Assembly: GCF_016026235.1 (NCBI RefSeq)
Contig: NZ_CP065613.1
Origin: Escherichia coli
GTDB taxonomy: Bacteria > Pseudomonadota > Gammaproteobacteria > Enterobacterales > Enterobacteriaceae
Direction: 5' to 3' (one strand)
DNA length: 64,000 bases
A model generated the notes under the pieces. It had not been told where the DNA came from. It was given only the letters and a program-made list of their open reading frames with translations, and ran no database searches. The position numbers and the translations under genes were made by a program. Shown piece by piece: positions 41,524 through 64,000 of the stretch (its first letter is position 1; each line of letters opens with the position of its first letter).

Positions 41524-41574
41524 TATTTCAGTTCTCTGGTACTAAATGGGGCAAATTGGGGGCAAACTTTGCAA

Positions 41575-42810
41575 CTACGATAACCGCGCATTCAACATGG
41601 CTATCTGTTCGTCGTTCATGTCATCAATCCACATACCGTAAATTTCATACACCATTTGCGCAGTTTCATGCCCCATCTGGCTGGCTATAAATGCCGGGTT
41701 CGCTCCTGCCGTCAACAGCCAGCAGGCAAAAGTATGTCGCGTATGGTACGGATTACGGCGGCGAATACCAGCACGTTTTACTGCTGCATTCCATCTCGCA
41801 CCCAAACTGCTTACCGAGTAATAAGGTTTCTGTTTTCCGTTACACATCCTGGGCATGAAAACAAAATGCAGTTTTTGCTTTTCGGTTCTGCCGTACTCCC
41901 GATGATAAAAAGTGATTTCGCTTTTGCGATGATGCCCGGTCAGTTTGTATTGCTCCTTCAGTGCTTCAAGAGCTGGCTGTAGTAATGTTACCGTCCGGAT
42001 CCCGGCATTTGTTTTTGGGGGACCGAACATATCAAGTATCGTCAGGTTTCTTCTGACATTCACAATTCCCTTCTCGAAATCCACATCCTCCCACGCCAGA
42101 GCTGCCAGTTCCCCGTGACGAAGCCCGGAGTAAACGGCAAATTTCCACAAGTTTTGGCTCTGTCCTTTTTCACTTTCCATTAATGCATTGAATTCTGTTT
42201 TAGATAACGGGTCAGGCTTTATTCTGTTTCGCTGTAATTTTTTTACTCCTTCAAATGGTTTGGTTGATATAAATCCCGACTGATACGCAAAACGTAACAG
42301 CGAACAGAGCAGGGCGATATAGTTATCAACTGTGCGCACGGTTCTTCCTTTTTTGTTGGATCTTGGATTATCCAGGTAAAGCGTTTCTCCATGCAGCAGT
42401 TCATTCCGGTAGTTTAAGATATCGCTATAACGAATATATGATATCGGGGTACTTTCACAAATTATTATTCTGAGTGTTTTTAATTGTGATTTCGTTTTCT
42501 TCATTGTGTTTGTTGTTAACTCTGTCTCTTTAATTTTTGTCCAGATATCACAAAGCTCCCCGAACGTTTTTATGACTCTCGTTGTCACCATTTTTGCCCC
42601 AGTGCTGGACTGGGGAAAACGTCTTAAATACTCAAATTCACCGGAGTTTATTTCATGAACTATCAGCGCTCTTAAATTTCCGGCCTTTTTAATATTACTG
42701 TTTGTAATCTCCCAGCCTTTTAATGTTTCCCGACATCGTTTTCCTCGAAACATGAACCAGATGCGAATGTTTCTACCTCTAATCTCGACACCTGTTGGTA
42801 ATTTAGACAT
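41575..42810 (-). CDS. intR: prophage tyrosine integrase (Rac IntR-like)
   Basis: 411-aa ORF; C-terminal catalytic region with HTRHTFA and terminal Y-containing box. Confidence 0.9.
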   Translation of the reverse strand: MSKLPTGVEIRGRNIRIWFMFRGKRCRETLKGWEITNSNIKKAGNLRALIVHEINSGEFEYLRRFPQSSTGAKMVTTRVIKTFGELCDIWTKIKETELTTNTMKKTKSQLKTLRIIICESTPISYIRYSDILNYRNELLHGETLYLDNPRSNKKGRTVRTVDNYIALLCSLLRFAYQSGFISTKPFEGVKKLQRNRIKPDPLSKTEFNALMESEKGQSQNLWKFAVYSGLRHGELAALAWEDVDFEKGIVNVRRNLTILDMFGPPKTNAGIRTVTLLQPALEALKEQYKLTGHHRKSEITFYHREYGRTEKQKLHFVFMPRMCNGKQKPYYSVSSLGARWNAAVKRAGIRRRNPYHTRHTFACWLLTAGANPAFIASQMGHETAQMVYEIYGMWIDDMNDEQIAMLNARLS

Positions 42811-42811
42811 A

Positions 42812-43051
42812 TCATGAGTCTTTGATAAACTGATTTATCTTTGGATAGTTGTACCAGATAATCCCTCGTTTGCTGTCTGGCTTACCTAAAGGAGATACTC
42901 GTTTGAAGTGGAAGCCCTCCACCCAACAGTTCTGGCGGTATGCTTCAATTTGTCTGGCCCCCAGACCAGTGCGAAGCATCAGGCCGTATTCAACCATCCA
43001 CTCTTCATTAAAGATTACTTGTGCCATCGCATCACCTCTGGCAGGCGCCAA
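42812..43051 (-). CDS. phage excisionase
   Basis: 79-aa ORF immediately upstream of int; Xis-like sequence. Confidence 0.75.
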
Positions 43052-43126
43052 TGTTAGACTGAAATTGACGCCTGATGTTGATTATTAATAATCAGCTATG
43101 AAGTTCTAATCTGGATATAATGAAAT

Positions 43127-43348
43127 TCACGAGGACTGAAGTTTCTCGCAATTAAAATTTATCAGTTTTACTTTCTGCTCTCTGGAAACGCCTGCTTCTT
43201 TTTCCCCTGAGAGCATTTTTTCGCATTCTGATTTCGTTAGTTTTGTCTTTGAGTATCTTGTCCAGCTGGCAGGAGAACCACCTTCCTTTTCAATAGTGGC
43301 TGTAATTTTATACATGAACACCTCCATTAATATTTTCCCAAAATGCAC
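43127..43348 (-). CDS. hypothetical prophage protein (73 aa)
   Basis: ORF in the early-left operon, same strand as neighbours; no recognisable domain. Confidence 0.4.
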   Translation of the reverse strand: MHFGKILMEVFMYKITATIEKEGGSPASWTRYSKTKLTKSECEKMLSGEKEAGVSREQKVKLINFNCEKLQSS

Positions 43349-43354
43349 TTGGTT

Positions 43355-44457: not shown

Positions 44458-44757
44458 TTAGTCCTCCAAATCAATATCAACCTGGTGGTGGGCAATGGTT
44501 TCAGCCATGTACCGGATGTGTTCTGCCATGCGCTCCTGAAACTCAACATCATCATCAAATGCGTGGCTGATTGCCTGTTTATTGGCACCGTGGCGTTGCA
44601 AATGGTCGATGCAGAGCGATTCAAACAGGTGCTGAGGCAGACCTTTTTCCAGGTCGTCCGCCAGTTCCGTTTCTTTTTCTTCACGAACGATCTGCTGGTA
44701 GTGGCGAGCCCATGCCATTTCTTCAATACGATCAAAAATCGGGTAAGCGCTCATCAC
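44458..44757 (-). CDS. hypothetical prophage protein (99 aa, acidic)
   Basis: ORF with ATGA-type overlap to the upstream gene; no recognisable domain. Confidence 0.4.
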
Positions 44758-45106
44758 TGGTCACTCCAAAATTTTCAAGCTTGTTGGCAATCATCATTGC
44801 GATGTCAGGGATTGCAGGCGCATAGGCTATGCACGCAGGATTCGCACATAAACCGTAAACCGCCGCAATCAACACCTGTTTTTTCCAGTTGAGTTCATCT
44901 TCGCCAGTTTCATTATTGCTATCATTATGCTGATCGCTGCCAGCGTTCTCCGGTAACAAATCATCAGCTTTTCCGTTTTCTTCGGCTCTTCTTCCTGTGC
45001 TTCATCTGGTTTTTTTTCGTCAAAAGTTTCCTGATAAGTTGCGTCTCCCATCACCGCGCCACAGTCAGGGCAGTTATCCTCGCCAGTCTGATTGCAGGGT
45101 GTTCCC

Positions 45107-46400
45107 CTGAGGGATCCCCAGAAAATTTAGTAAACCATTATCATATTGGTATACCGTTGCTGTAGAACTTTCAGCCCTGCGTCAAGTGACAGTGTGTTTA
45201 GTATGAGTGGAGAATGTCGAATCACATTCTCCGCCAGTTTTAATAACGAGATGACTCGCCTGTGCTTCACTGTATTTGCCTGATATTTATGATGTATCCC
45301 TTTGTTTTCCAGGCTGAAACCGCTTAACCACATAATGATACTGGCTAATGTTGCGATCAGACTCAATACCGTGACCCGCCCGGATGAATGACTGGCACCA
45401 AACCGTAGTCCAAATCCCCAGCGAGGATTTTTTTCATCCCTGAAATTTTGCTCAATTTGCATTCTACGGCTGTATAATTTCATTACCTGTTTTGGCGAGA
45501 ACTCAGTACTGTTTGTGAAAATAAACCATGGTGATTTCCCGGCAGTACGAGCTTTAGCCGTCACCGATGGTCTGGTTGCTCTTTCCTTCGAGCGTTTAAA
45601 TCTACGACCTTTAGGCTTACTTTTATAAAGATAAAAATGCCCTTCATGTTGTGCATTTTTATCTCGACCCAGCAGGCCTTCACCTAAATAAATTGCTGTC
45701 GTTGATGCTTTTGTGCCTGAGTCCGACACCTTTTCCCAGCCATTACCAACATTGTAATAATGATTGCCCAGTACCCGGCAAATATAGGTCCAGCCACGGG
45801 AGCGGAGCTGTTGGAACCATCGCCCCTGAAAACCGGCATCTGTAATAACAATGACATCAGTCCCGGGGGAAAAGCACTCAGCAAGCGATTCCAGAAAACG
45901 CTCATGTACATCTGCATTCGCTGTCTGTGATGATGGAACGACACAACTCATCAACGGTAAAGAACGCCCGTCACATGCCAGGCTTGCCCGCAAAAGCTGA
46001 AAACGAGAGGCATGATAAGCACTCCAGTCAATGAGTATCACAACACGAGACATTCCCCGCGTAATCTTTTGGGTAATTCGCTGAAAAATGGTGGAAACCT
46101 CATTTTGCAAATGTCGATTCCCCAACAGTCGATCCACCCGCTTTATTTTGTTTTTAACTGATGCCGTACCGGTTAAATGACGCCCGATACTGGTAAGTGT
46201 GAGGGAAGCGCCATTTATTACAGCATTAGTTGCGTCAATCAGTGATTTTTGACGGTAAAGATGCAAAGGGGCCAGTATGTTGTTAAGGAAATTTTGGCAT
46301 AATGAACGTGCAGGCATAGTGGTGATCTCCTTGAAATTGTTAGCACAATCAATTAGATCACATCTCACTATGCCTGTCTTGTTTTCTGGGGATTCCTCAG
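45107..46400 (-). mobile_element. IS4-family (IS10-like) insertion sequence, copy 3
   Basis: Same inverted repeats; 10-bp direct repeat GGGTGTTCCC on both flanks; 1294 bp. Confidence 0.85.
45127..46317 (-). CDS. IS10-like transposase (IS4 family), intact
   Basis: Translation identical to the copy 2 transposase. Confidence 0.85.
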   Translation of the reverse strand: MPARSLCQNFLNNILAPLHLYRQKSLIDATNAVINGASLTLTSIGRHLTGTASVKNKIKRVDRLLGNRHLQNEVSTIFQRITQKITRGMSRVVILIDWSAYHASRFQLLRASLACDGRSLPLMSCVVPSSQTANADVHERFLESLAECFSPGTDVIVITDAGFQGRWFQQLRSRGWTYICRVLGNHYYNVGNGWEKVSDSGTKASTTAIYLGEGLLGRDKNAQHEGHFYLYKSKPKGRRFKRSKERATRPSVTAKARTAGKSPWFIFTNSTEFSPKQVMKLYSRRMQIEQNFRDEKNPRWGFGLRFGASHSSGRVTVLSLIATLASIIMWLSGFSLENKGIHHKYQANTVKHRRVISLLKLAENVIRHSPLILNTLSLDAGLKVLQQRYTNMIMVY

Positions 46401-47998
46401 GGGTGTTCCCTCCTCCGGTTCGCTGTTCTGGTGCTGTTTATCTTCAGTCTGTCGCACTTCATTTTCCGTTTTTTTGACTTCATTTGAGGAGATATGATGA
46501 CCGGGAATCCATTTCGGATCATTCGGGTCGCTAATCCCTTCAACAAATTCTCCGCGAGAGGCAGCCAGTAATTTGTCTGCATCGACAGGATTTTTGGGCG
46601 GAATGTTTTTCCGGGCTTCATGGAGTTCTGCCCGCAGTTCCTGATATTTCTCATCAACAGCATTTACCTGTGACTGAGCATCCAGCGGCTGCGTGTCCTG
46701 ATGATGTTCAGTTGCATCCGGTTCCACTGTTTCAGCCGTTGCCTGTTCATCTGCCATTGCGCAAGATGGTTGCGGTTTTTCTTCATCATCCTGTTTTCCT
46801 TCTTCTGTTACTCGCTGCGGCATCGGGGCAGAGGAGCGACCGCAGGCAATATCCACGATTTCCGGATCAGGGTTGGCATGATCGGTTTCAGTCAGTACCT
46901 TGTTCAGATATTCAGTGACGTGCGCGGGGATGACCTCGATACCAATCGGTGCTTCTTTCACTGACGCAACCACGATGGCGCGGGAATAATCCATCCCGCC
47001 AGGCATGGTGATGAATTTGTCGCGGAAAACAGAAAAGGGCGGTTTATTTTCAGTGATAATTTCCTCAATGCGTTTAGCGTGTGCCGGATGAAGATTATAA
47101 ATATCCACGTCCATTGAACGGGCCAGTACGCCAGTGGCTACGTCGCGCGCCAGCGACGTCAGATCGTGGACGAAACCTTCGCCGCGATCGGTGAGGTTCC
47201 CGCCGCCAGCATTAGCACCGGAAGCCGTGCGAGTGATACGCGAAACACGATTTCCTTTCATCCACTCTTTTGTCAGCAGACCGCGATCGGTGTAGTTGGC
47301 ATCCAGATATGCTTCGAAAAAAGCAGTCATCAGTCCCAGATTTGAATTGCCAGGATTAGGGAAAACTTTGTCAGTATCACGCACGAGTTTGTGGAGGTCG
47401 CGAATCTCCAGCGGGTCGAGCAGACTGGTTTTATGCGAAACAGCCAGAGCAGTAACAGCCGGTAGTTCTTCATCCCGAGCAATGTGTAATGCCTGGAGTT
47501 CGTCGCGTGAAACGTGCGTTACCGGTTTTTCGCTGCCGTGTTGCGCAAGCCAACGAATGGGCAGTTCCTGACCGGAAACTGGCAGGAGCATGTTCTCCTC
47601 AATTTCTGTCATGTCTTCGCCGTTGACGTTGGTATTGTCAGTGCTGGCTGGTTTGTCCTGAACAGAGGGAGAAGATGCGATAAATACCATTGTGATGCCA
47701 TCTTCCCCGCCTTTTTCGTAACGGTTGCAGAATTCCGTATCAAACACGCCTTCTGGTGGGAGGTCATCAACAACGGGCAAATTGACGCGAACAGGTTTTT
47801 TAAAGTCATCTTCATCGTAGCCAGCATCGTCAATCGCAACAGCACCACGGGAGATGGCAATGGATAATTTTTTCGCTTCAGCCCAGTAAAAACCGCCTTT
47901 AATACCGAGGCGTTTTCTTACTTTGTCATTTTTTGCTTCGTAATACAGTGGGTAAACTTGTTTATCGGTGCTCATTGTTTTTTAACCTCAACTCATAT

Positions 47999-48343
47999 TC
48001 AGATTGCATAAAAGAAACGAACTGATGATGCGATATGAGAGAGTTCTTTCAGTCGTTGATAACTGATACCGTATTTCTTGTCAGCCTCTTCAATGCGAGC
48101 TGTGAGTAATGCAATTTCTTTAATGGCACATACACAACAATCAAATGTTCCCAGAACGTAACCGTCATCAATAATTACCGTGACGTTTTCTTTTTGGGAA
48201 ATCTGAATGAAACTATGTAATGTATTCCCACATTTAAATTCGGCGAGAGAATCGTTAATAACATCAAGTTCAATTTCACATTCAATAATGCTCATTGCTG
48301 TTTCCTTTTTTAAGGTTGAGTGAATCCCTGCCATTGCTGGCAT
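47999..48343 (-). CDS. hypothetical prophage early protein
   Basis: ORF in the early-left operon; start may lie at the internal MSIIECEIE. Confidence 0.4.
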   Translation of the reverse strand: MPAMAGIHSTLKKETAMSIIECEIELDVINDSLAEFKCGNTLHSFIQISQKENVTVIIDDGYVLGTFDCCVCAIKEIALLTARIEEADKKYGISYQRLKELSHIASSVRFFYAI

Positions 48344-48369
48344 AAATTCAGTTTCGAATATTCAGTTAA

Positions 48370-48657
48370 TTAAAGTTCGTGTGCCATCTTGTCTTTTTCG
48401 GCACAAGCTGCACTGCAATATTTTCGTTTCTTTCTGGCAATCATGTTTCCATGCATATAAATAAGCTCGCCAGTAAAAGCTTTTTCAGGTAAAAACTGTT
48501 TATTGCAGAGATGGTAATCACATTGTATTAAATCCAGGTCACCTTTTTGCTGGAGAATTTTTCTGATTCTCCACAGCCATTTTTTAATCCCGGTATGACT
48601 GATGGTCTGCCTGAGGGCAGGTGTAAAACAATAATCAAGCATGGGGTTCATATCCAT
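48370..48657 (-). CDS. hypothetical Cys-containing prophage protein (95 aa)
   Basis: CDYHLC and CSAAC pairs suggest possible metal binding; early-left operon. Confidence 0.45.
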   Translation of the reverse strand: MDMNPMLDYCFTPALRQTISHTGIKKWLWRIRKILQQKGDLDLIQCDYHLCNKQFLPEKAFTGELIYMHGNMIARKKRKYCSAACAEKDKMAHEL

Positions 48658-48667: not shown

Positions 48668-49212
48668 TTATTTTAAGGAAAGCAACTGCTCTACGGTCAT
48701 GTTTTTAATTGCGCCCCGGTTTACAAGAGTCCAGCCCTGTTTTTCCAGATAAAACCGGAAAGTCTCCAGGGTACAGACCAGTGCGCCATCAGGAACGGTT
48801 TCGGTGAATTCGACATTGCCGAATTTGTCGAAGTGAACAACCAGAGTGCGACCATCACCCGGAATCATCTTGTCAGCAGGTGGGGTGTTATTCTGGCGCA
48901 GTTCGGCCTCCATGCGGTCGAACTCAGCAATGTAGGCTTCCTTGAATGTGGCGGCTTTTTTGCCCGTGAAGCCCATCACCAGGAAAACGAAGCCGTTTTT
49001 GGTGATTTGGTAGGCGTTATAAGAATTGCCGCGGTGTTCGAATTTAACCCGCGAAAAGTTGCTGGTTAAAAATAGTTCAGAACATTCGAGGGATTCTATT
49101 TTTTGAACAACATGGTGATGCTGCTTGCCAAAAAACTCAGCAATCGAAATAGAAGTAGTGACGGCGCGACCATTTTCGATGGTTACGTCAGGGTGAGAAA
49201 GGGTAGTAGCCA
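48668..49212 (-). CDS. Rha-family phage regulatory protein
   Basis: Start at MATTLSHPDV with gagga RBS; Phage_pRha-like block GRAVTTSISIAEFFGKQHHHVVQKIESL. Confidence 0.7.
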
Positions 49213-49914
49213 TAATGACATCCTCAAGTGATAAGTTAATTAACTCACCAGCAGAGGTGCTAATCTCATGGGTGGTGAGACGCACAGGGTTAGCACTACC
49301 GGTCACTCGAGAACCCGGCCAGCCTTGCGGCTGCCCCGCACGCCTCACCATAATTTGAATGTGGCTGTGCATTACGCATAAAAAAACCGCTTCAGCGCGG
49401 TTATGCGCTCGAGTAACTTTCGGGGTGCTAATCCCGGCACCCGTTTTATGAGGTGCAGGTGCACTATAATTCCACCCGTTCTGGTTTTCAATAGCTACAT
49501 TCAACATTTTCTCTTTCCTTTCATCACCGAAGTGAATTTTGTGATGCGGTGCCTGGTGCCTCCAGGTGACGTTAACCAGTTAACAATTACAGTCGGCTTT
49601 CCCACCCAAAACAATAAGGACTAACATGACTTTTAACTGTGCCGCGTGCGCTTAGCCGCATTCACCGCATCACAAAATTCACTTTAAAAAGGGCGGACAT
49701 CAGCCAGCAATTAAACCGATGCCGCCAACTGGTACTTCACACAGCAATGTCGTTATTTACAACCGGAAGCGCACTCCCACCATTTAAATTTCACAGACAA
49801 GACCGACTCTTTATGAATACCGGAAATGCGCCTTCGTGTTGTGCCCGGTTTTATTTCACCACCTCCGGGCTTTGGTGGTATCTTTACTGAAGTTCTCACA
49901 CAACCAGTAAGGAA

Positions 49915-50547: not shown

Positions 50548-50852
50548 GTTGACCCCATTTCCCCTTAACGCCGGGTGGCGGAACGTTTTATCTACTGCGC
50601 TTTGTATCAATCAACAACTGCCGTCATGTTCGTATGCCTCAGGCTGGCTACTTAGCCCTGTTCAGTGACTGGATAACTCGAGGTATTGTCCTGCCGTTCT
50701 CTGGTGGGGCGTTGTTTGGATATGCTTATTAAACACAATTTGTTTTCTTATGTCAACACGTAATGTGTTTTATGGTGGGTGTCATATGATGATGCTACAA
50801 AAAAGCCCGCTGATAGCGGGCTGATTGGCATATTACTGTGATAGCAAGATCA

Positions 50853-51272
50853 TTATTCCGGTGGGGGATTATCTTTAATCCTGCCTCTCAAATATTTTTC
50901 TACATACTCATCGATTTCTTTTAGCCGGACTTCAAATAGCTCAATCATTCGTTGTTGTTCTGAGCCCGGTAGCTGGTTAAACAACTCAAGAAGTTTTCGT
51001 TGGGATTCATTTAACCACAATTCAGAAGATTCCTGTTCTCCAAAGAGGAGCTCAGGAGGAGATATGCCAAGTGCCTTTCCCAATACGACAGCGTCATGTA
51101 CTCCAACATTTCTGCTGCCCGCCTCATAGTTACCTATACGCGATTGCGTCCATCCGCAGATTTCAGCAAGTTTTCCTTGAGATAAACCAAGCTTCTGCCT
51201 GCGCTCTTTAAGACGCATTGCAATTTTGTCATTGAGCCTACTAGCGGCAATTTTTTCGTTTTCTTTTTCCAT
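50853..51272 (-). CDS. prophage repressor (XRE-family HTH, RacR/cI-like)
   Basis: HTH LGLSQGKLAEICGWTQSRIGNYE; divergent from a cro-like gene. Confidence 0.8.
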   Translation of the reverse strand: MEKENEKIAASRLNDKIAMRLKERRQKLGLSQGKLAEICGWTQSRIGNYEAGSRNVGVHDAVVLGKALGISPPELLFGEQESSELWLNESQRKLLELFNQLPGSEQQRMIELFEVRLKEIDEYVEKYLRGRIKDNPPPE

Positions 51273-52030: not shown

Positions 52031-52093
52031 GCAAAAGTTTCCATGCTGTTTGTGCTTATTCTAAGCAACCGGGCAGCATCATACGGGGCAATT

Positions 52094-53995: not shown

Positions 53996-54009
53996 TTTCA
54001 GGAGGATTT

Positions 54010-54432
54010 ATGGCGAAACCTTTTACTCCCGAACAGCGGGAAGAACTGAAGACGCGAATTGTGGAACTCGTGCATCAGGACGGTCGGGTCACGATTCGGC
54101 AGTTGTCAGATGAAACAGGTATCAGTCGTGCGTCTGTCGGTCGCTTATGCATGGAACTGGTCGCAAGTGGTGATGTATATAATTCTGGCTACGGGGTATT
54201 TCCCTCTGAACAGGCTCATAAAGACTGGCAAAACGCCCGCAAAAAGCTATCGAGGGTAAAGGTGAAGAAACCGGTTGTGGTTGATCCTGACCTTATCTGG
54301 TCATTACCAGACGGAGAAATACGCCGCTACGACAGGCGCCTGAATATAATCTGTCGCGAGTGCCGGAAGAGCGAAGCTATGCAGCGCGTGCTGGCGTTTT
54401 ATCAGGGGAAATTTCAGGAGGCGGTACTGTGA
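54010..54432 (+). CDS. hypothetical prophage protein with HTH-like segment
   Basis: 140-aa ORF; TIRQLSDETGISRASVGRL resembles an HTH. Confidence 0.5.
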   Translation: MAKPFTPEQREELKTRIVELVHQDGRVTIRQLSDETGISRASVGRLCMELVASGDVYNSGYGVFPSEQAHKDWQNARKKLSRVKVKKPVVVDPDLIWSLPDGEIRRYDRRLNIICRECRKSEAMQRVLAFYQGKFQEAVL

Positions 54433-54475
54433 GTAAAATTAGCTATGAAGTGGTCAACAAAAACTGGCCACCGAG

Positions 54476-55623
<1,148 letters not shown>

Positions 55624-55742
55624 TATGGCACCTGTGTTGTTCTGAGGTGAGCATATCACCTCTGTTCAGGTGGCCAAATTCAGTAAACCACTTCACTATC
55701 AGGCTTCAATTACCGCTGGTATTCGCATCAAAGGAGAGGAGC

Positions 55743-56099
55743 ATGGAAATAAAACCAGAAGATGAGTTAAGCAATATCGTTTTATTTCCGGTAAAAGAGG
55801 ATGACCCACGTAATCAGGTTAATTTTCTTTATGAACCATCGGAAAGACCATATTGCCATCACGCCTCTGTCCGGGTTGACGAAAAAGAGCGTCAGGTCCG
55901 CTGTAAAATCTGCGGTGCGGTTGTGGAGCCGTTTGACTGGATGCTCTCTGTGGCAAAAAGAGAAACCAGACTGGCAGATGATGTAAGGCTATTGCGCCAG
56001 GAGGAACAGGAAAGGCGGAGAAATATAGAAAAGCTGATACAGATTGAGCGTAACGCGAAAGCGCGGATACGCAGGGCGACAAAATCCAGAACTGAATAA
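55743..56099 (+). CDS. hypothetical prophage protein with zinc-ribbon-like Cys/His cluster
   Basis: Start at MEIKPEDE with gagagga RBS; CHH...CKIC then a basic coiled-coil tail. Confidence 0.5.
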   Translation: MEIKPEDELSNIVLFPVKEDDPRNQVNFLYEPSERPYCHHASVRVDEKERQVRCKICGAVVEPFDWMLSVAKRETRLADDVRLLRQEEQERRRNIEKLIQIERNAKARIRRATKSRTE

Positions 56100-56191
56100 T
56101 TAAATTTAGCACTGTTAAAAATTTAATCCTTAACCGGAGGGATTTCTGCACCCTCAAATCATCAGGAGACCGCCCGAAAGGGCGGTAATGA

Positions 56192-56410
56192 ATGGTTACA
56201 TTATTTAGAAAAAAATATCCGCGAAAGAGTAGAACAACAGAATTCCTGTTTCTCATTCTGTTTATCGTGTTGATGACACCGATATCCCCACTAATTTTTG
56301 TCTGGATAATCGGAAAAATAATTGAGCCAGTTATTGAATTGTATAACGACGTGGTATGGGCGTCATTCAACACACTGCACAATAAAATTAATCCGTATAA
56401 GGAAAGCTGA
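56192..56410 (+). CDS. small hydrophobic prophage protein (72 aa)
   Basis: ORF with one strongly hydrophobic segment. Confidence 0.3.
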   Translation: MVTLFRKKYPRKSRTTEFLFLILFIVLMTPISPLIFVWIIGKIIEPVIELYNDVVWASFNTLHNKINPYKES

Positions 56411-56411
56411 T

Positions 56412-56777
56412 ATGGCACTGACGAAAAAACAACGTGCAGAACTGCGCATGAAGTTCGGTGGTCGCTGCGCTTATTGCGGCTGCGAACTTGGCGAAAAGTG
56501 GCATGCAGACCATGTAAAACCGGTCATTCGTTTTGATGGAAATATGCTTCACCAGGAACGTGACGATATATCCAACATGGTACCAGCATGCCACCCATGC
56601 AATCTGCACAAGCATTGCAGTAGCCTGGAAGATTATCGACGAATTATCAGTGATGGTCGTCGTGAATTCCTTGCGTCCGGGAAAGGCAAAGCGCTGGTTC
56701 GTATGGGATTGGTTGAAATGAAATCTGACCCGGTTGTGTTCTGGTTTGAAAAATATCAAGAAGGGGCTACGGCATGA
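56412..56777 (+). CDS. HNH endonuclease
   Basis: CAYCGCEL...HADHVKPV...PACHPCNLHK motif set. Confidence 0.75.
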   Translation: MALTKKQRAELRMKFGGRCAYCGCELGEKWHADHVKPVIRFDGNMLHQERDDISNMVPACHPCNLHKHCSSLEDYRRIISDGRREFLASGKGKALVRMGLVEMKSDPVVFWFEKYQEGATA

Positions 56778-57439
56778 CCACTATTACCAAAGAGCGACTG
56801 CAATGGCTGGCTAACATTTCTGGCCGCGATGATATTGACGATATAGACGGCGGTGAAATTCGTGAACTGGCGCTTATCGCTCTGGCATCACTGGAAGCAG
56901 AGCCTGTAGCGGAATGCATTGTTGAAGATGGGGGCATGTGTATTGACGGGTTCGGTGAGTATGTGGGTCACTCGCTGCCTGATGGAATGCATGAGCTTTA
57001 TGCTGCCCCGCGAATGCGACAACCTGATGGATGGAAAGCCGTAGCTGTAGCGTGGAAGGTGACGTTTACTCAAGTTGACCAGGAATCTAATACGTTCACT
57101 GCTATATATTTTGACAAAGCGGAAGTTGAGCGTTGGGTACGACTGCATAAAGCATGTGATTTTCGGGCAGATATAACACCGCTTTACGCAGCGCCGGCAG
57201 TGCCGGTTGCAGTAAACGACGACATGGCTTACGCATTCCATCACGCACTGTCAGATTCATCGCTTGGCTCTGATGAAATCGAAGAAATTAAAACCGGTTT
57301 GCGTGCTGCCTTTGCCAACGTCACTATCCAACCAGAGCCGATAGTGCCGGATGAAATCGGGCCAAACGATAGTAATACGTTTGATTATGTTGATGGCTGG
57401 AACGCCTGCCGCGCTGCCATGCTTAAGGGAGATAAATAA
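56774..57439 (+). CDS. hypothetical prophage protein (221 aa)
   Basis: ORF with overlapping start/stop to neighbours; no recognised domain. Confidence 0.5.
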   Translation: MTTITKERLQWLANISGRDDIDDIDGGEIRELALIALASLEAEPVAECIVEDGGMCIDGFGEYVGHSLPDGMHELYAAPRMRQPDGWKAVAVAWKVTFTQVDQESNTFTAIYFDKAEVERWVRLHKACDFRADITPLYAAPAVPVAVNDDMAYAFHHALSDSSLGSDEIEEIKTGLRAAFANVTIQPEPIVPDEIGPNDSNTFDYVDGWNACRAAMLKGDK

Positions 57440-57804
57440 TGATTAATCGAACCAAACTGGAGCACATTCTCGAATATGCCAGGCAGCAGAAATGTATTGG
57501 GCAACTTTGTAAAATTCCACCAGGAGATATGGTTGAAATCGTGGAAATGGCCATGCGTAAGGCTGGCAACTCTCCGGTAACTCCGGCTGGCTGGATAAGC
57601 TGTAGTGATGCAGTTCCTGCTGAATATTGCGATGTGATTCTTCTCGATGATCTCGGGAATGTATTCCCCGGTTCCTGGGATAAGGTTTTTTGCCCCACTC
57701 GTGGCGGGAATAAGATGGCTTTTGTGGACAAAGACGGCGTTGAAGTAGAGAGCTCAACTCACTGGATGCCGCTACCGGAACCACCGCAGGAGGTGAATCA
57801 ATGA
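57439..57804 (+). CDS. DUF551-like phage protein
   Basis: C-terminal HWMPLPEPP motif typical of this phage family. Confidence 0.6.
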   Translation: MINRTKLEHILEYARQQKCIGQLCKIPPGDMVEIVEMAMRKAGNSPVTPAGWISCSDAVPAEYCDVILLDDLGNVFPGSWDKVFCPTRGGNKMAFVDKDGVEVESSTHWMPLPEPPQEVNQ

Positions 57805-57884
57805 CCTGGCCTGAGGCATTCACCACGGTAGGAATTGCGATGGCGGTGGCGCTGGTGGTGTATTCGATTTGCCGTTGGGGTTAA
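57801..57884 (+). CDS. 27-aa hydrophobic peptide
   Basis: MTWPEAFTTVGIAMAVALVVYSICRWG, ATGA overlap with upstream gene, terminator follows. Confidence 0.3.
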   Translation: MTWPEAFTTVGIAMAVALVVYSICRWG

Positions 57885-57890
57885 CAAACA

Positions 57891-57920
57891 AAAACCCCGG
57901 ATTGATGGTCCGGGGTTTTT
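57891..57920 (+). terminator. rho-independent terminator
   Basis: aaaaccccggattgatggtccggggttttt. Confidence 0.65.
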
Positions 57921-58258
57921 GAAGGAAACAAAACAGAAACAGCAATTGCCGTTACCTGTTGTTACCATGGCAAGTAAACGTATCTCAGGCGAGCGCATTG
58001 CGCCGTTCTGACGCAGATAAACTAGCCTGGATAGATGGTGCTGGCAATAAAAAATAGCGTTTTCTTATCGGTGTCGGTAAGATTGCTGCGGGTGCTTGAG
58101 GCTGTCTGCCTCGGGCATGTCACTGTAAGGCAGACAGAGAAAAGCCCCAGTTAACATTACGCGTCCTGCAAGACGCTTAACATTAATCTGAGGCCCAATC
58201 TATGTCTCACAAATGTAGGTTAGCCTCTTACGTGCCGAAAGGCAAGGAGAAGCAGGCT

Positions 58259-58414
58259 ATGAAGCAGCAAAAGGCGATGTTAATCGCCCTGATCGTCATC
58301 TGTTTAACCGTCATTGTGACGGCACTGGTAACGAGGAAAGACCTCTGCGAGGTACGAATCCGAACCGGCCAGACGGAGGTCGCTGTCTTCGTAGACTACG
58401 AATCTAGAGAGTAA
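58259..58414 (+). CDS. Hok/Gef-family type I toxin
   Basis: MKQQKAMLIALIVICLTVIVTALVTRKDLCEVRIRTGQTEVAVFVDYESRE; aaggag RBS. Confidence 0.8.
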   Translation: MKQQKAMLIALIVICLTVIVTALVTRKDLCEVRIRTGQTEVAVFVDYESRE

Positions 58415-58692
58415 GAGTGACCAGGCGGGAGAGTAATCTCCCGCCACCTTTGATGTGTCAGGCATCCTCAACGCACCCGCACTTAACCCGTTTCGGCGGT
58501 TTTTTTTGTTGCGTGCTGAATACGCAGGGTGAAAAATAACCATATATTTGATTATATACACAACAAAAAATAAAAGTCATTGTACTTGCACATTAAACAA
58601 TCAAATATACGGCGTGAAATAAATGTTTTTCAGATTAATATTTTTGTCTCTATGTGGATATAACCGTTTGTACTTATAAACCTGGAGGCATC

Positions 58693-58905
58693 GTGGAAAA
58701 AATAAAGAAACTATTTAGTAGCAAATACGCAGTCATACGTCGTGATGACCTGTCAGTTATAGTCGAAATGGATTACTTCCCTGAAACCCCAAAATCAATA
58801 ATGTATCGTAATGGTCGAAAGGCAATTTTTTTACCGATGAGGGTAAGTGACATTATGGGAAATGATAAACTGCTGGATGAATTGCGAGTCAGAGCATCCT
58901 GTTAG
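58693..58905 (+). CDS. hypothetical prophage protein (70 aa from GTG)
   Basis: ctggagg RBS before GTG at 58693; no recognised domain. Confidence 0.35.
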   Translation: MEKIKKLFSSKYAVIRRDDLSVIVEMDYFPETPKSIMYRNGRKAIFLPMRVSDIMGNDKLLDELRVRASC

Positions 58906-58976
58906 TATTGGCATTAATTCTGGTATACTACATAACGGGCTGAACACCCATTCTACTGCGCCAGCGGAGAACTACG

Positions 58977-59576
58977 ATGGCGCATATACAACTGGTCAAA
59001 CAAACCTCTTCCGGATTACTTCTCCCGGCGACGCCGGAGAGTTGCGATTTTTTGCATCAAATCAAAATAGGTGAGTGGATACACGCAGACTTTAAGCGTG
59101 TGCGTAACTACGCATTCCACAAGCGTTTTTTCAAACTCCTGCAACTGGGATTTGATTACTGGACTCCGGTCGGTGGGGCGATCACGCCTCGCGAACGAAA
59201 ACTGGTATCAGGCTTCGTTGATTACCTGTGCGAATCAGTAGGTCGGGAACACACTCCAGCCCTGAGTGATGCCGCAGAGCAATACCTTAATACAGTTGCG
59301 ACATGCAGAACCCGGGATACGGCATTGCTAAAGTCGTTTGACGCTTTCCGCGAGTGGGTAACCATTCAGGCCGGATTTTACACCGAGCATATTTATCCTG
59401 ATGGTAGTCGTGGGCGCAGGGCAAAATCTATCGCATTTGCGAACATGGACGAAACCGAGTTTCAGCAGGTTTATAAATCTGTACTGAATGTGCTGTGGAA
59501 CTGGATCCTGTTCCGTAAATTTTCCTCTCCGGAACAAGTCGAAAATGTGGCCGCGCAGCTACTGGAGTTTGCGTAA
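58977..59576 (+). CDS. hypothetical nin-region prophage protein (199 aa)
   Basis: ORF directly upstream of the YbcO-like gene. Confidence 0.5.
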   Translation: MAHIQLVKQTSSGLLLPATPESCDFLHQIKIGEWIHADFKRVRNYAFHKRFFKLLQLGFDYWTPVGGAITPRERKLVSGFVDYLCESVGREHTPALSDAAEQYLNTVATCRTRDTALLKSFDAFREWVTIQAGFYTEHIYPDGSRGRRAKSIAFANMDETEFQQVYKSVLNVLWNWILFRKFSSPEQVENVAAQLLEFA

Positions 59577-59866
59577 TGGTGGATTTACGTAAAGCGGCGC
59601 GGGGGCAGATGTGCACCGTCAGAATTCCTGGCTACTGCAATCACGATCCGGAAACGTCTGTGCTGGCGCATTACCGACTGGCGGGAACGTGCGGAACAGC
59701 GACAAAACCACACGATATGCAGGCGGCGATTGCCTGTAGCTCATGCCACGATTTAATCGACGGGCGGGTAAAAACAAGCGATTACACCAAAGAAGAATTA
59801 CGCCTGATACATGCAGAAGGTGTTTTTCGCACGCAAGAAATCTGGAGAAAGGAAGGTTATTTATGA
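59576..59866 (+). CDS. YbcO-like protein (DUF1364, putative nuclease)
   Basis: Cys-rich 96-aa ORF resembling DLP12 YbcO. Confidence 0.7.
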   Translation: MVDLRKAARGQMCTVRIPGYCNHDPETSVLAHYRLAGTCGTATKPHDMQAAIACSSCHDLIDGRVKTSDYTKEELRLIHAEGVFRTQEIWRKEGYL

Positions 59867-60417
59867 TTTACCCAACAAATACAGGCAAAAGCGGGGAACA
59901 CCTTCGTCTCACCACGCTGGAAAGTGTCTGGATTCAGGGAAAACTGCGCATGTGGGGGCGCTGGTCGTATATTGGCGGCGGTAAGACGGGGAATATGTTC
60001 AACCAGTTGTTGGCCTCTAAAAAGCTGACAAAAACGGCAATTAACGAGGCGCTCCGGAGGATGAAAAAAGCAGGTCTGGACAAACCTGAACTTGAGGCTT
60101 TTTTGCGGGATATGATCAACGGCAAGCAAAAAAGCTGGCTGGTGCATTGTACTGACGCAGAGGCGTTATGCATTGATCGGGTGATTAGTGAAGTGCTGGC
60201 AGAACACCCAGGATTGATTTGTATCCTCCGGCAACGATATGAAGGGAGTGGGATGACTAAGCGAAAAATGGCTGAATTGCTGAATGATTCACACCCTGAG
60301 TGGTGTTATCGGACGTGTTGCAGTCGGGTTGATGTATGGCTAAATCTTGCTGAATATATGCTCTATCTACCGATGCGTGATGCATTCTCTTCCGGGGATC
60401 TAAAAACCGTCTGTTGA
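59863..60417 (+). CDS. candidate late-gene antiterminator (Q-like by position)
   Basis: 185-aa ORF whose stop overlaps the -35 of a strong promoter followed by a terminator. Confidence 0.45.
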   Translation: MIYPTNTGKSGEHLRLTTLESVWIQGKLRMWGRWSYIGGGKTGNMFNQLLASKKLTKTAINEALRRMKKAGLDKPELEAFLRDMINGKQKSWLVHCTDAEALCIDRVISEVLAEHPGLICILRQRYEGSGMTKRKMAELLNDSHPEWCYRTCCSRVDVWLNLAEYMLYLPMRDAFSSGDLKTVC

Positions 60418-60443
60418 CTCAATCTGTTATCCGGGGCTATATT
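60414..60443 (+). promoter_or_regulatory. pR'-like late promoter
   Basis: TTGACT-18 bp-TATATT immediately after the Q-like stop. Confidence 0.5.
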
Positions 60444-60504
60444 CCTCACGCGCCAGCAAAATCTGGCGTCGGGATTGGCGTCCCGGATGTTTACGGAGCG
60501 ATAT

Positions 60505-60526
60505 GAGACGCGCCCGCGTCTTTTTT
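60505..60526 (+). terminator. tR'-like terminator
   Basis: gacgcgcccgcgtc hairpin plus T6, about 70 bp downstream of the promoter. Confidence 0.55.
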
Positions 60527-60689
60527 CATATCGTTTGCACAGTCTCATTCGCGATTTATGGCGGGCTGTGTGGGGGAGCCGAAAGGCTCGCCGGTTTCCG
60601 TACCCGGTTACGCCAACCCTGCACAGTTCGCCACCAGTTCGATTGGCGTCGTCGGTGGCGATAATTTCCAAATGTACGGAGTTATCGTT

Positions 60690-61247
60690 ATGACCACTCA
60701 AATCTCTGTTGAAACTCTCTCCCCGATCACCCATAACCAGATTCCTGTTATTACCACCGAACTTTTGGCGCAGCTTTACGGCACTGAGCCGGTGCGTATT
60801 CGCCAGAATCATCATGAGAACAAAGTACGCTTCGTTGAAGGGAAACACTTTTTCAAAGTTGTTGGTAATGACCTTAAAGAATTGCGGGTAGCTTTAAACT
60901 ACTCACAAAATCCCATCTCTCCCAAAGCCCGCTCCCTCATCCTCTGGACAGAACGAGGCGCAGCACGCCACGCCAAAATGCTCGAAACCGATCAGGCGTG
61001 GGATGTGTTCGAAAAACTGGAAGACTGCTATTTCAGTCAAAAGGATCCGTCAACGCCAGTTTCATGCCAGAAAAGTTACGACACGCGAGTTCTCTGTTAT
61101 CAGAGAGGCGGTGTCACTGTTTCCACAATTCAGTTACGGGATGATGATATTGTTATTTCCCTTGAGTCATGGCTGGAACTGGCGAGAGCCAATGGTTGGT
61201 TTGTTGTTCGCAGAGATAAACTGGTGGAAAGGTTGATGCAGCTTTAA
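60690..61247 (+). CDS. ORF6N-domain protein (KilA-N/Bro-N superfamily, antirepressor-like)
   Basis: ITTELLAQLYGTEPVRIRQNHHENKVRFVEGKHFFKVVGNDLKEL block; ggag RBS. Confidence 0.6.
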   Translation: MTTQISVETLSPITHNQIPVITTELLAQLYGTEPVRIRQNHHENKVRFVEGKHFFKVVGNDLKELRVALNYSQNPISPKARSLILWTERGAARHAKMLETDQAWDVFEKLEDCYFSQKDPSTPVSCQKSYDTRVLCYQRGGVTVSTIQLRDDDIVISLESWLELARANGWFVVRRDKLVERLMQL

Positions 61248-61344
61248 AAAAGTTCTTGCATTTTTGCACATAAACTGCTTCAATTCCGGTAAGCTTCGCA
61301 AAGCTGTATCGCGAGGCGAATAGCAGACATGGACATTTGAAAGA

Positions 61345-61367
61345 GCCCGCTTTATGCGGGTTTTTTT
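61345..61367 (+). terminator. rho-independent terminator
   Basis: agcccgctttatgcggg hairpin plus T7. Confidence 0.55.
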
Positions 61368-61455
61368 ATACCTGAAAAACGGCACAGGACGTTAAACGTG
61401 CTGGTGGTCAGATGAGTTTGCAGATGTGATGACATATGGTTATTATTCTGCCTCC

Positions 61456-61532
61456 GGCCCTTTAGCTCAGTTGGTCAGAGCGAGCGACTCATAATCGCCA
61501 GGTCGCTGGTTCAAGTCCAGCAAGGGCCACCA
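61456..61532 (+). tRNA. tRNA with anticodon CAT (Ile2/Met type)
   Basis: Manual cloverleaf: GGCCCTT acceptor, loop CTCATAA, T-arm GCTGG/CCAGC, CCA end. Confidence 0.8.
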
Positions 61533-61533
61533 A

Positions 61534-61610
61534 CCACCACTAGCTCATCCGGATAGAGCATCAACCTTCTAAGTTGACGGTGCGAGGTTCGAGTCCTCGG
61601 TGGTGGGCCA
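61534..61610 (+). tRNA. tRNA-Arg (anticodon TCT)
   Basis: Manual cloverleaf: CCACCAC acceptor, loop CTTCTAA, T-arm CGAGG/CCTCG, CCA end. Confidence 0.8.
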
Positions 61611-61612
61611 GC

Positions 61613-61688
<76 letters not shown>

Positions 61689-61691
61689 TAT

Positions 61692-61766
<75 letters not shown>

Positions 61767-62058
61767 GTCAGAGTCTTTCAGTCTGCGATGATGGGAAATC
61801 CCGGAGTGACTGAAAGACGTTTAAGTTATGAATGATCGCCTTTTTTTGCAAAATTGCTGTGCAGAAATACTAACCTTCGGGCGTGCGATCATTCATAAGC
61901 ACTCTGCTTTTATTCCGATTAACTGTGGGTGGTTTGTTGGATAGAGTGCTTTCCTTACTGTATATATCGTTTCGCCCGCTTTTGCGTTTTTTTCTTTTCA
62001 AATCCCTTTCATTTCTCAGTGTAAAACTACGCCATCCGTTATTTGCGGAGGTGAGGCT

Positions 62059-62274
62059 ATGAAATCCATGGACAAAATTTCAACGGGCATTGCCTACGGC
62101 ACCTCCGCCGGCAGTGCCGGCTACTGGTTTTTGCAGTGGTTGGATCAGGTCAGTCCATCACAGTGGGCTGCGATTGGTGTGCTGGGAAGTCTGCTTCTGG
62201 GGCTTCTGACTTATCTGACGAATCTGTATTTCAAAATAAGAGAAGACAAGCGTAAGGCTGCACGGGGAGAGTAA
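62059..62274 (+). CDS. class II holin (phage 21 S-like pinholin) with dual-start motif
   Basis: [28 protein letters not shown]...; Met1 and Met4 starts; two TM segments. Confidence 0.85.
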
Positions 62275-62277
62275 ATA

Positions 62278-62907
62278 ATGAAGCATGAAGAAATGAATCA
62301 GCGATTCAATCACCTGGAAAATGAAATCACTGAGCTTAATAAAAAATTGTCGGCGTTGGTGAGTTCTGAAGATGAAAACAAACGCCGCGATGAGCATTAT
62401 GCGGCGATTTACGATTACTGCCACAAAGTCGCTCACGAGACTTTTATGAAGTTTTTGCAGGAAAAGTTTTTACCGGCCGCATTGTCAGAAAAAGAGGCGG
62501 CTTACCTGCGGCCTGAGTACGTCATTACGGTTAACAGTGCCGGAGAGGAAGAGCATAAAAGTGATTTTATTGCGTCTGCACCGGATAAAGACCAGGAACC
62601 CCGTCGGCCTTTCAGGGTTTCCTGTGAAGAGGGTGAGTTCGTCGTTTATGAGAACGGAAAACCTGTCCGGGCATCGCATCATCACTGCCTGAAAATTATT
62701 AATCTCGCTATCAGATGCCTGAAAGACGAAAACACCAGAGTTATGAAACGCATTGGCCGTTGCATGGGGTATTTGCAGGTGGCGGCAGAGATTGAAGCAC
62801 TTGCCAGTGGTGCAGACATGGATGCTGCGGTGCGGGAGGCTCTTCTTCGTGATTTCAATACTCCCCCTTTAAGAAAGAGCCTGATGACTGGATCCAGCCG
62901 GGGCTGA
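62278..62907 (+). CDS. hypothetical protein (209 aa) between holin and endolysin
   Basis: Uninterrupted ORF starting 4 bp after the holin stop; coiled-coil N-terminus, no TM segment, no recognised domain. Confidence 0.6.
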   Translation: MKHEEMNQRFNHLENEITELNKKLSALVSSEDENKRRDEHYAAIYDYCHKVAHETFMKFLQEKFLPAALSEKEAAYLRPEYVITVNSAGEEEHKSDFIASAPDKDQEPRRPFRVSCEEGEFVVYENGKPVRASHHHCLKIINLAIRCLKDENTRVMKRIGRCMGYLQVAAEIEALASGADMDAAVREALLRDFNTPPLRKSLMTGSSRG

Positions 62908-62972
62908 CTTATCTTAAAAGGCGTATATAAGTTGGCTCGTTATTTGTTGCCGATAAATCCTGATAAATATCC

Positions 62973-63506
62973 ATGAGCGCAAAAATCAAATACGGCCTGT
63001 CGGCTGCTGTTCTGGCGCTGATTGCCGCAGGCGCGTCTGCTCCCCAGATACTTGACCAGTTTCTGAACGAAAAAGAGGGTAATCACACAACGGCATACCG
63101 TGATGGTTCTGGCATATGGACCATCTGTCGTGGTGCCACAATGGTGGATGGTAAGCCTGTCATACCGGGAATGAAGCTGTCGAAGGAAAAATGTGACCAG
63201 GTTAACGCTATTGAACGTGATAAGGCGCTGGCATGGGTGGAGCGCAATATTAAAGTACCTCTGACCGAACCACAAAAAGCGGGTATAGCGTCATTTTGCC
63301 CCTATAACATTGGCCCCGGTAAGTGTTTCCCGTCGACGTTTTATAAGCGGCTGAATGCCGGTGATCGTAAGGGCGCATGCGAGGCGATTCGCTGGTGGAT
63401 AAAAGATGTTGGGCGCGATTGCCGCATACGTTCAAATAACTGCTATGGACAGGTTATTCGTCGTGACCAGGAAAGCGCATTAGCCTGTTGGGGGATAGAT
63501 CAATGA
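62973..63506 (+). CDS. SAR endolysin (lysozyme, phage 21 R-like)
   Basis: N-terminal signal-anchor-release segment [18 protein letters not shown]; lysozyme sequence. Confidence 0.85.
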
Positions 63507-63970
63507 GCAGAGTCACCGCGATTATCTCCGCTCTGGTTATCTGCATCATCGTCTGCCTGTCATGGGCTGTTAATCATTACCGTGATAACGCCATTACCTA
63601 CAAAGAGCAGCGCGACAAAAACGCAAGAGAACTGAAGCTGGCGAACGCAACCATTACTGACATGCAGCAGCGCCAGCGTTCTGTTGATGCACTCGATGCT
63701 AAATACACGAAGGAGTTAGCTGATGCGAAAGCTGAAAATGATGCTCTTCGGCGCAAGCTTGATAATGGTGGTCGGGTGCTCGTCAAAGGAAAATGCCCTG
63801 TGCCAGCCTCAGCCAAAACCTCCAGCGCCTCCGGCATGGGCAATGATGCCACCGTCGAACTCTCTTCAGTTGCTGGACGAAACGTTCTCGGTATCCGGGA
63901 CGGAATTATCCGCGACCAAACAGCACTGAGAACGCTTCAGGAATACATCAATACGCAATGCCTGAATTAA
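63503..63970 (+). CDS. i-spanin Rz
   Basis: N-terminal TM segment then coiled coil; overlaps the endolysin end. Confidence 0.75.
63723..63929 (+). CDS. o-spanin Rz1 (lipoprotein embedded in Rz in the +1 frame)
   Basis: Lipobox LIMVVGCSS and proline-rich PPAPPAW. Confidence 0.7.
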
Positions 63971-64000
63971 TCCCTCTGTATCAAAAACGAACTCAATTTG

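Follow-up and report, generated by a model that had tools for sequence, protein, structure and literature searches.

A mosaic prophage at ttcA of Escherichia coli, very probably the left part of a single Rac-family element

The gene ttcA is where the Rac prophage of Escherichia coli K-12 is integrated, and phage genes lying beside it raise the question of whether they belong to one element of the Rac type, where that element begins, and how far it extends. We addressed this question for a 64,000-nucleotide (nt) stretch of the E. coli contig NZ_CP065613.1 (the window; all coordinates follow its numbering, and (-) denotes the minus strand). The analysis indicated that a single mosaic lambdoid prophage, a member of the Rac family with a total length of about 48 kb, very probably lies at ttcA, and that positions 41474–64000 cover its left 22.5 kb. 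The first-pass annotation, made from the sequence alone, had called a Rac-like prophage at ttcA, and this call was borne out by the identities of IntR, XisR, and YdaTUV and by a match at attL. From the open reading frame (ORF) map and the Pfam and PHROGs assignments, the gene order was int-xis, recombination, divergent repressor/cro, replication, nin-like, Q-like, and lysis, which is the classical lambdoid order; head and tail genes were supplied by a sister strain and the rest by the window. Phage genes ran on to the window end as had been described, with Rz ending at 63970 of 64000, 30 bp short of it. The chromosome to the left of the prophage (ycjT...tyrR...dbpA-ttcA) was that of an ordinary E. 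coli, at about 98% identity.

The left end of the prophage was found inside ttcA. The first-pass annotation had considered attL undefinable without the other end, but a 26-bp att core, TTGTTCAGATTGTATTGTTCTTTCTT, was located at 41474–41499. The region that it had started at 41524 was indeed phage, but the prophage actually begins at the att core in ttcA, approximately 25–50 bp further left, where its boundary is now fixed. The distance of 51 bp reported between ttcA (40588–41523, (-)) and the integrase ORF (41575–42810, (-)) was exact; the gap lies between the start codon of ttcA and the stop codon of the integrase. An imperfect repeat extends from the att core to the ttcA ATG at 41523; therefore, approximately the first 8–17 codons of ttcA are phage-borne. 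An IntR-type tyrosine integrase would have put the phage into the 26-bp core of the ttcA 5' end, and ttcA would have stayed intact because the phage supplied a substitute 5' end. The gene was intact in the window, and its product was 99.7% identical to K-12 TtcA. When the attL of VL40, the attR of a sister strain, and the attR of K-12 were aligned with the window attL, the latter equaled the K-12 Rac attL except for one base.

The core occurred once in the window, which agreed with the earlier statement that the right boundary lies outside it. In the sister strain, the 26-bp core was repeated at attR (L034 20144–20169) as part of a 43-bp, 93% repeat of window 41474–41516 (L034 20144–20186), which was followed by a Usp gene. 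This attR was laid out like that of K-12 Rac (ttcC', beside uspF). K-12 Rac (NC_000913.3, 1411899–1434958) has the same att core, the same position in ttcA, and the same left neighbors, dbpA and ttcA, as the window, and the same uspF/ttcC' on the right as the sister strain. By coordinate arithmetic on the sister record, attR is expected approximately 25.9 kb past the window end, giving an element of approximately 48.3 kb. An attB rebuilt from the window left flank, the core, and the sister right flank was contiguous (at least 80% coverage) in 2489 of the 5426 complete E. coli genomes, at up to 100% identity, and in such empty sites ttcA directly abuts uspF. For Rac-SA53 (KU052037.1), a Rac relative of full length, the deposited record places a 26-bp attP at the matching position. 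Two tandem GGGGCAAA motifs lie between ttcA and int, and three similar copies were present on the attR side of the sister strain, within L034 19998–20046; these motifs by both junctions are plausible candidates for IntR arm-type binding sites.

To follow the element beyond the window end, related assemblies were compared. No complete RefSeq E. coli genome contained the whole prophage region; the best, VL40 (NZ_CM177011.1), covered 83% of it at 97.5% and carries an annotated ttcA prophage that extends from intR to the lysis, terminase, head, and tail genes. When the 209-amino-acid (aa) protein of the lysis region, Rz, and the Q-like protein were used in exact-protein look-ups, the matches lay in many unrelated lambdoid prophages, and no prophage among them was collinear with the window. 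The ORF6N protein and the ORF in which recE is fused to an insertion sequence (IS) were specific enough to find sister strains, the recE::IS ORF having exact matches in only six contigs, which were labelled E. coli. Assembly GCA_014155105.1 was 99.977% identical to the window over 36368–57974, and GCA_900449985.1 (UGFA01000002.1) was 99.992% identical over 50691–64000 (13.3 kb). Both hold both IS insertions and differ from the window by a few single-nucleotide polymorphisms and indels, such as a frameshift in ydaU. In UGFA01000002.1 the element runs approximately 26 kb beyond the window end, rightward through DUF4406, small and large terminase, portal, ClpP-type protease/capsid, tail genes, tape measure, and J, and then Lom, tail fibre, DUF4376, sitDCBA, the ttcA-derived repeat, and the Usp gene (uspF).

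The first-pass annotation had proposed that finding the prophage to end before the lysis cassette would point to two adjacent elements. In such a case, a short Rac-like remnant would stop ahead of the lysis cassette, and a second, unrelated prophage or island would give the tRNAs and lysis genes. The sister assembly was instead continuous through terminase, head, tail, and sitABCD, with no second integrase or att site between the window end and attR, and a single attL/attR pair enclosed everything; nor was there a second integrase or att core in the window. Some observations would suit two elements: similarity to VL40 breaks at 61768–62067 and 62262–63500, the lysis genes are nearer to those of Qin (RrrQ 93%, EssQ 82%) than to those of Rac, and the sister-strain head genes are of another type than those of VL40. 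However, the block 56375–62261, with nin, Q, tRNAs, and holin, was contiguous in the ttcA prophages of CP065611 (99.85%) and VL40 (approximately 96%), and Rz matched the rzpR remnant of K-12 Rac at 91%. The similarity breaks near the lysis genes are normal lambdoid mosaic joints, and the presence of two elements is highly improbable.

Both of these relatives have matching early and late blocks contiguously, and each departs from the window elsewhere. The ttcA prophage of CP065611.1 was 99.7–99.9% identical to the window in three blocks but has neither IS element and is missing the immunity and replication block. That of VL40 differs in an IS600 located elsewhere in recE, in other nin genes, in an RrrD-type endolysin, and in lambda-type heads. 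A sit-uspF junction of VL40 was observed approximately 0.55 Mb from its ttcA prophage on the opposite strand, which suggests a large inversion between prophages in that genome.

Membership in the Rac family was then weighed by comparison with K-12 Rac. The window prophage has in common with it IntR, XisR, rcbA/RalA, the 5' two thirds of recE, ydaE, the ydaF region, ydaT, ydaU, ydaV, and the Rz fragment. In contrast, it is without RacR, YdaS, ralR, recT, the recE nuclease domain, racC, kilR, sieB, and trkG; tblastn of the window gave no RalR, RecT, RacC, KilR, SieB, or TrkG. It is further set apart from K-12 Rac by Rha and ORF6N antirepressor cassettes, by tRNAs, and by two IS elements. The nin, Q, and lysis genes lost from K-12 Rac are retained, as are, judging from the sister strain, the lost head and tail genes. 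One could suppose that a generic lambdoid phage had merely acquired a Rac int-xis-att cassette, since the repressor, cro, recombination, and lysis genes and the sister-strain head genes differ from those of K-12 Rac, and no phage-database match extends over more than 32% of the region. This is very unlikely, because the genes common with K-12 Rac reach well past that cassette, from rcbA/ralA, the 5' two thirds of recE, ydaE, and the ydaF region to ydaTUV and the Rz fragment, at 75–98% nucleotide identity, and the order of hok, DUF1367, ybcO, and Q is common to Rac-SA53. By blastp, the repressor was not similar to RacR, and the Cro-like protein was not similar to YdaS. Immunity and recombination are variable modules; therefore, their mismatch with K-12 does not count against the Rac family. 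The element is a heteroimmune relative of K-12 Rac, and the absence of RacR/YdaS and RecET argues for mosaicism. The coordinates of the features are collected in Table 1.

Table 1. Features of the ttcA prophage in the window, with strand and supporting evidence
Feature	Position	Strand	Evidence or remark
attL core, 26 bp	41474–41499	.	Inside ttcA 5' end; in place identical to K-12 Rac attL
Two tandem GGGGCAAA motifs between ttcA and int	41548–41566	+	Candidate Int arm-type sites
intR, tyrosine integrase, 411 aa	41575–42810	-	Pfam Arm-DNA-bind_2 and Phage_integrase; 99.0% aa identity to K-12 IntR
xisR, excisionase, 71 aa	42812–43027	-	Pfam DUF1233; 100% identity to K-12 XisR
rcbA-like DUF1187 gene	43127–43315	-	Pfam DUF1187 2.5e-36; 87% identity to K-12 RcbA
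RalA small RNA gene, type I antitoxin	43131–43309	+	Rfam RF02694, 207 bits (gathering 170)
AAA_24/Sak4-like ATPase, 365 aa	43355–44452	-	Pfam AAA_24 7.5e-14; phrog_1366; phrog_124 'Sak4-like ssDNA annealing protein' 1e-8
gam, host-nuclease inhibitor	44458–44757	-	Pfam Gam 8.1e-56
recE-like gene, 3' fragment	44732–45106	-	Similar to K-12 RecE aa 520–585 only
ISEc60-like IS4-family IS, 1294 bp, in recE	45107–46400	-	DDE_Tnp_1; NCBIfam IS4 transposase 1e-107
recE-like gene, 5' fragment	46401–47975	-	Pfam Exonuc_VIII; NCBIfam exodeoxyribonuclease VIII positions 1–523 of 877
Two small early-left genes: phrog_2434 protein and YdaE-like protein	47999–48657	-	
Rha-domain antirepressor-like gene	48668–49213	-	Pfam Phage_pRha at aa 117–200 of long ORF; annotated ORF to 49507
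isrK-like RNA (49380–49456) and C4-like antisense RNA (49268–49355), leader upstream of Rha gene	49268–49456	-	Rfam RF01394 68.5 bits, RF01695 78.6 bits
Repressor, HTH_3, 139 aa, no S24 peptidase domain	50853–51272	-	Pfam
Cro-like HTH protein, 80 aa	51369–51611	+	Pfam HTH_3
Replication module: ydaT, ydaU (DUF1376, O-like/primosomal), ydaV (DnaC-like loader)	51608–53995	+	Pfam, PHROGs
DUF977/Ren-like protein	54010–54432	+	
ISEc52 (IS911-like) IS3-family IS, 1250 bp	54446–55695	-	orfA/orfB (HTH_Tnp_1 and rve)
nin-like region: 118-aa protein, DUF4014, HNH endonuclease, 221-aa protein, DUF551	55743–57804	+	
hok/sok, type I toxin-antitoxin	58090–58414	+	hok 58259–58414; mok-hok ORF starts at 58202
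83-aa protein (phrog_1813), DUF1367, YbcO putative nuclease	58654–59866	+	
Q-like antiterminator (DUF1133), 184 aa	59863–60417	+	Pfam 2e-105; phrog_753 'anti-termination protein Q-like'
Late leader: promoter-like site 60414–60443, isrK-like 60450–60526, terminator 60505–60522, C4-like 60554–60638	60414–60638	+	
ORF6N antirepressor-like gene, AnrP position	60690–61247	+	Pfam ORF6N; phrog_2379 'anti-repressor' 6.5e-94
tRNA array: CAT, Arg-TCT, Thr-TGT, Gly-TCC	61456–61766	+	ARAGORN, Rfam
S21-type class II holin (pinholin), 71 aa	62059–62274	+	PF04971 1.1e-35; 82% identity to EssQ
209-aa protein in holin-endolysin slot	62278–62907	+	Homologous to C-terminal domain of long YdfR/DUF1327 proteins
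Endolysin, 177 aa	62973–63506	+	Pfam Phage_lysozyme; 92.7% identity to RrrQ of Qin
Rz spanin	63503–63970	+	Pfam Phage_lysis
Rz1 lipoprotein embedded in Rz	63723–63929	+	Lipobox VVGC, proline-rich tail

The recombination module was described earlier as different from that of Rac, and an AAA_24 ATPase, Gam, and RecE fragments were found there. At the nucleotide level, the match to K-12 breaks off at 43335, after 28 nt of the ralR 3' end, and is regained at 44899 in recE, so that only the last 28 nt or so of ralR remain. Thus, the K-12 segment ralR-recT-recE (nuclease domain) has been replaced by another module, the AAA_24 ATPase and Gam cassette. The ATPase, which had no PDB sequence match, is presumed to be an annealing/recombination protein acting in the stead of RecT. 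The RalR/RalA pair was incomplete, the fully conserved RalA gene being kept as an orphan antitoxin, and it could be retained as an anti-addiction device against the RalR of related Rac phages. The exchange of RecET-RalR for Sak4-like/Gam offers a clean case of module exchange within the Rac family.

The 5' fragment of recE encodes a product 84% identical to K-12 RecE aa 40–481. The 3' fragment has a 1-bp deletion near 44969 relative to the intact allele of CP065611 (L021 3305–5245), which encodes 646 aa corresponding to K-12 RecE aa ~1–585 and to positions 1–622 of the 883 in the RecE PHROG. Because this allele stops at position 622 of 883, the recE-like product of the prophage lineage lacks the C-terminal nuclease domain; the 646-aa gene carries an exodeoxyribonuclease annotation all the same. 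In the window strain, recE is dead, having both an IS and a frameshift. Further along the early-left arm, window 49530–49882 was 91% identical to the K-12 Rac interval that holds the kilS small RNA, and kilR and sieB were absent.

Two IS types had been reported, and the prophage indeed contains an IS4-family and an IS3-family element. The IS4-family element, named ISEc60 in RefSeq relatives, has 22-nt inverted repeats at 95% and is flanked by a 10-bp target duplication, GGGTGTTCCC, at 45097–45106 and 46401–46410, all features of its family. It was absent from the corresponding recE site in VL40 and CP065611 (L021). Two more ISEc60-like copies, 99.8–100% identical, were observed in the chromosomal part of the window (23204–24496 and 30113–31406), which indicates that this IS is active or expanded in the lineage of the window; one RefSeq E. 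coli (FDAARGOS_943) carries it at 38 places. The IS3-family element has ends TGAAGTGG...CCACTTCA, which are TG...CA inverted repeats, and a 3-bp target duplication, CTA, at 54443–54445 and 55696–55698, as is characteristic of the family, and was 100% identical to copies that RefSeq names ISEc52. By analogy with VL40 it had been considered as an IS600; this was rejected on the grounds that blastn gave no similarity to the VL40 IS600 and on its length of 1250 bp, its inverted repeats, and the RefSeq naming. No ORF is broken by the ISEc52 copy, which occupies the spacer separating the DUF977 and 118-aa genes of the early-right operon, a position between PR and Q.

The replication proteins are close to those of K-12 Rac, with aa identities of 96% for YdaT, 95% for YdaU (with an insertion), and 83% for YdaV. 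PADLOC made no defense-system assignment; there was only a weak PtuB-like match (3e-8) of the HNH gene, and none for the other accessory ORFs. The Hok toxin noted earlier was recovered at 58202–58414 (Pfam HOK_GEF PF01848, 1.1e-22) together with an Rfam sok match at 58090–58264 (RF01794, 118 bits); the toxin is 92% identical to HokD of Qin.

The regulatory genes were distinctive in their RNA leaders. The Rha regulator reported in the first pass corresponded to a Rha-domain gene at 48668–49507 (Pfam Phage_pRha 6.9e-26), whose long ORF has 279 aa, and the ATG at 49213 within it is preceded by a GAGGA Shine-Dalgarno sequence. The first ~98 codons of the 279-aa ORF, which also give a Pfam hit to Phage_ASH, overlap the isrK and C4 matches. 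Because the Phage_ASH portion coincides with these RNA matches, it may be a spurious call or encode a leader peptide; in the isrK-type leader of Gifsy-1, translation of a short upstream ORF has been shown (PMC4825925). 'Rha/Ash' ORF calls, which have spread widely, share their positions with isrK/C4-type RNA elements, and re-examination by phage annotators may be worthwhile. A second leader directly follows the Q-like gene and precedes the ORF6N gene, the long ORF of which has 229 aa. In this late leader, Rfam scored isrK at 75.6 bits, c4-a1b1 at 52.2 bits, and C4 at 77.6 bits, and the promoter and terminator came from a scan. The isrK, C4, sok, and RalA matches were all above the Rfam gathering score, and the two leaders were 75% identical.

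The repressor has no LexA-like autocleavage domain; therefore, induction of the prophage may be driven by antirepressors, and would proceed via the two antirepressor-like genes gated by the isrK/C4 leaders, as in Gifsy-1 and P1 immI. We tentatively propose, as an idea that is more doubtful than not, that the repressor is controlled by two paralogous RNA-gated antirepressor cassettes, and that the post-Q cassette doubles as the late-promoter/terminator leader; a single Q-dependent transcript would then connect late transcription with the release of antirepressor and the supply of tRNAs.

The tRNA array announced in the first pass comprised four tRNAs at 61456–61766. Its CAT tRNA was identical to one RefSeq-annotated tRNA-Ile in VL40, so the array reads AUA, AGA, ACA, and GGA. 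Codon use per 1000 codons was compared between 25 prophage genes and 24 long host ORFs, both in the window. The frequencies in prophage and host were 12.1 and 6.9 for AUA, 11.7 and 2.1 for AGA (5.6-fold), 15.3 and 9.0 for ACA, and 14.4 and 10.2 for GGA. The array matches codons enriched in the prophage and fits codon compensation.

The cassette called phage-21-type contained the PF04971 holin, a lysozyme, and Rz. The holin N-terminus, MKSMDK, has the S21 dual start MKSM, and the endolysin sequence has an Ala/Gly/Ser-rich hydrophobic N-terminus like that of signal-anchor-release (SAR) endolysins and an E-x8-D-x5-T motif. The contiguous S-R-Rz/Rz1 layout of phage 21 was not found, the 209-aa ORF lying between S and R. 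This protein occurs only in E. coli/Shigella prophages and had no Pfam, NCBIfam, PDB, or defense match; its AlphaFold2 model had a mean predicted local distance difference test (pLDDT) score of 53, too poor for a fold search.

The state of these genes was used to judge whether the prophage could be a temperate phage that is inducible and fully functional. The int, xis, repressor, cro, ydaU, ydaV, Q-like, holin, endolysin, and Rz/Rz1 genes are intact ORFs in the window, and the IS3-family element, in a spacer, breaks none. The loss of recE through both IS and frameshift is damage to a gene that is dispensable for lambdoid growth. However, 1.25 kb of IS lies between PR and Q, and the sister assembly has split or truncated protease/capsid, tape measure, K, and J genes, with gpI not called. 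A functional phage is therefore unlikely, although less so than the two alternatives above, and partial decay of the Rac-family element is likely.

Several points weigh against the reading of the locus as one Rac-family prophage. The split head, tape-measure, and J genes of the sister NCTC assembly could represent either real decay or long-read indel errors; this assembly also has the ydaU frameshift without a counterpart in the window, so some of the splits may be sequencing errors. For the right half, the sequence is that of a sister strain rather than of the genome from which the window comes, and even the closest sisters differ by a few bases. The term 'Rac-like' holds for the integration and replication modules only, immunity and recombination not being those of Rac in this mosaic. 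Finally, antirepressor induction, the Sak4-like role, the arm sites, and tRNA codon compensation are features that we infer from sequence. Weighing these points, we retain the single Rac-family prophage with high confidence.

The approximately 48-kb Rac-family mosaic is thus one element and not two islands. It is an ordinary lambdoid of the Rac family, a new mosaic member with near-identical copies already in public assemblies, and all its component parts belong to known kinds; its significance beyond correct annotation is little. The analysis does link the ttcA element to the iron/manganese uptake system sitABCD, a cargo with relevance to the fitness of E. coli and Shigella.

Each module has a known counterpart. 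The lysis region is like those of phage 21 and Qin in its P21-family dual-start holin, SAR-like endolysin, and embedded Rz1, and the essQ-ydfR-rrrQ layout of Qin places ydfR in the slot of the 209-aa gene; the window cassette combines an RrrQ-type endolysin (93%, Qin) with an Rz of the Rac/lambda type. The late leader follows the Gifsy-1 isrK locus, with a Q-like gene, promoter, isrK-like RNA and terminator, C4-like RNA, and antirepressor-like gene in the matching antQ-isrK-orf45-anrP order (PMC4825925), and P1 immI c4-ant likewise has a C4-type RNA leader before an antirepressor-like gene. In contrast to Gifsy-1 and P1, the window has two copies, one ahead of the Rha-domain gene in the early-left arm, and its Q-like gene is of the DUF1133 type.

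The sitABCD operon has been published as a moron of lambda-like coliphages and prophages, and the published sit-bearing lambdoids have it in the position that it takes in the sister strain (PMC6969025, PMC2808357, PMC7545054), where sitDCBA lies between the tail-fibre genes and attR; the 'PAI sit' of Shigella and enteroinvasive E. coli is a further known counterpart. For the element described here, the operon was observed only in the sister strain, beyond the window end. The tail-fibre-sit-uspF junction was found in 475 complete E. coli genomes, and a Fur-box-like site (3 mismatches) was observed 77–95 bp upstream of sitA in the sister strain.

Rac-SA53 covered only 26% of the query, at 92% identity, and differs in having RecET and ralR, dicA/dicC-type immunity, other holins, LT-IIa and pertussis-like toxin cargo, and another virion module; it also has rem. 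It likewise shares ttcA integration, intR, ydaC, ydaT, ydaU, mok/hok, DUF1367 (irsA), ybcO, and Q. The differences from K-12 Rac listed in the first-pass annotation were all real, but several of them (hok, Q) are not departures of this lineage: because Rac-SA53 has hok, DUF1367, ybcO, and Q, the absence of these genes from K-12 Rac reflects deletions in K-12.

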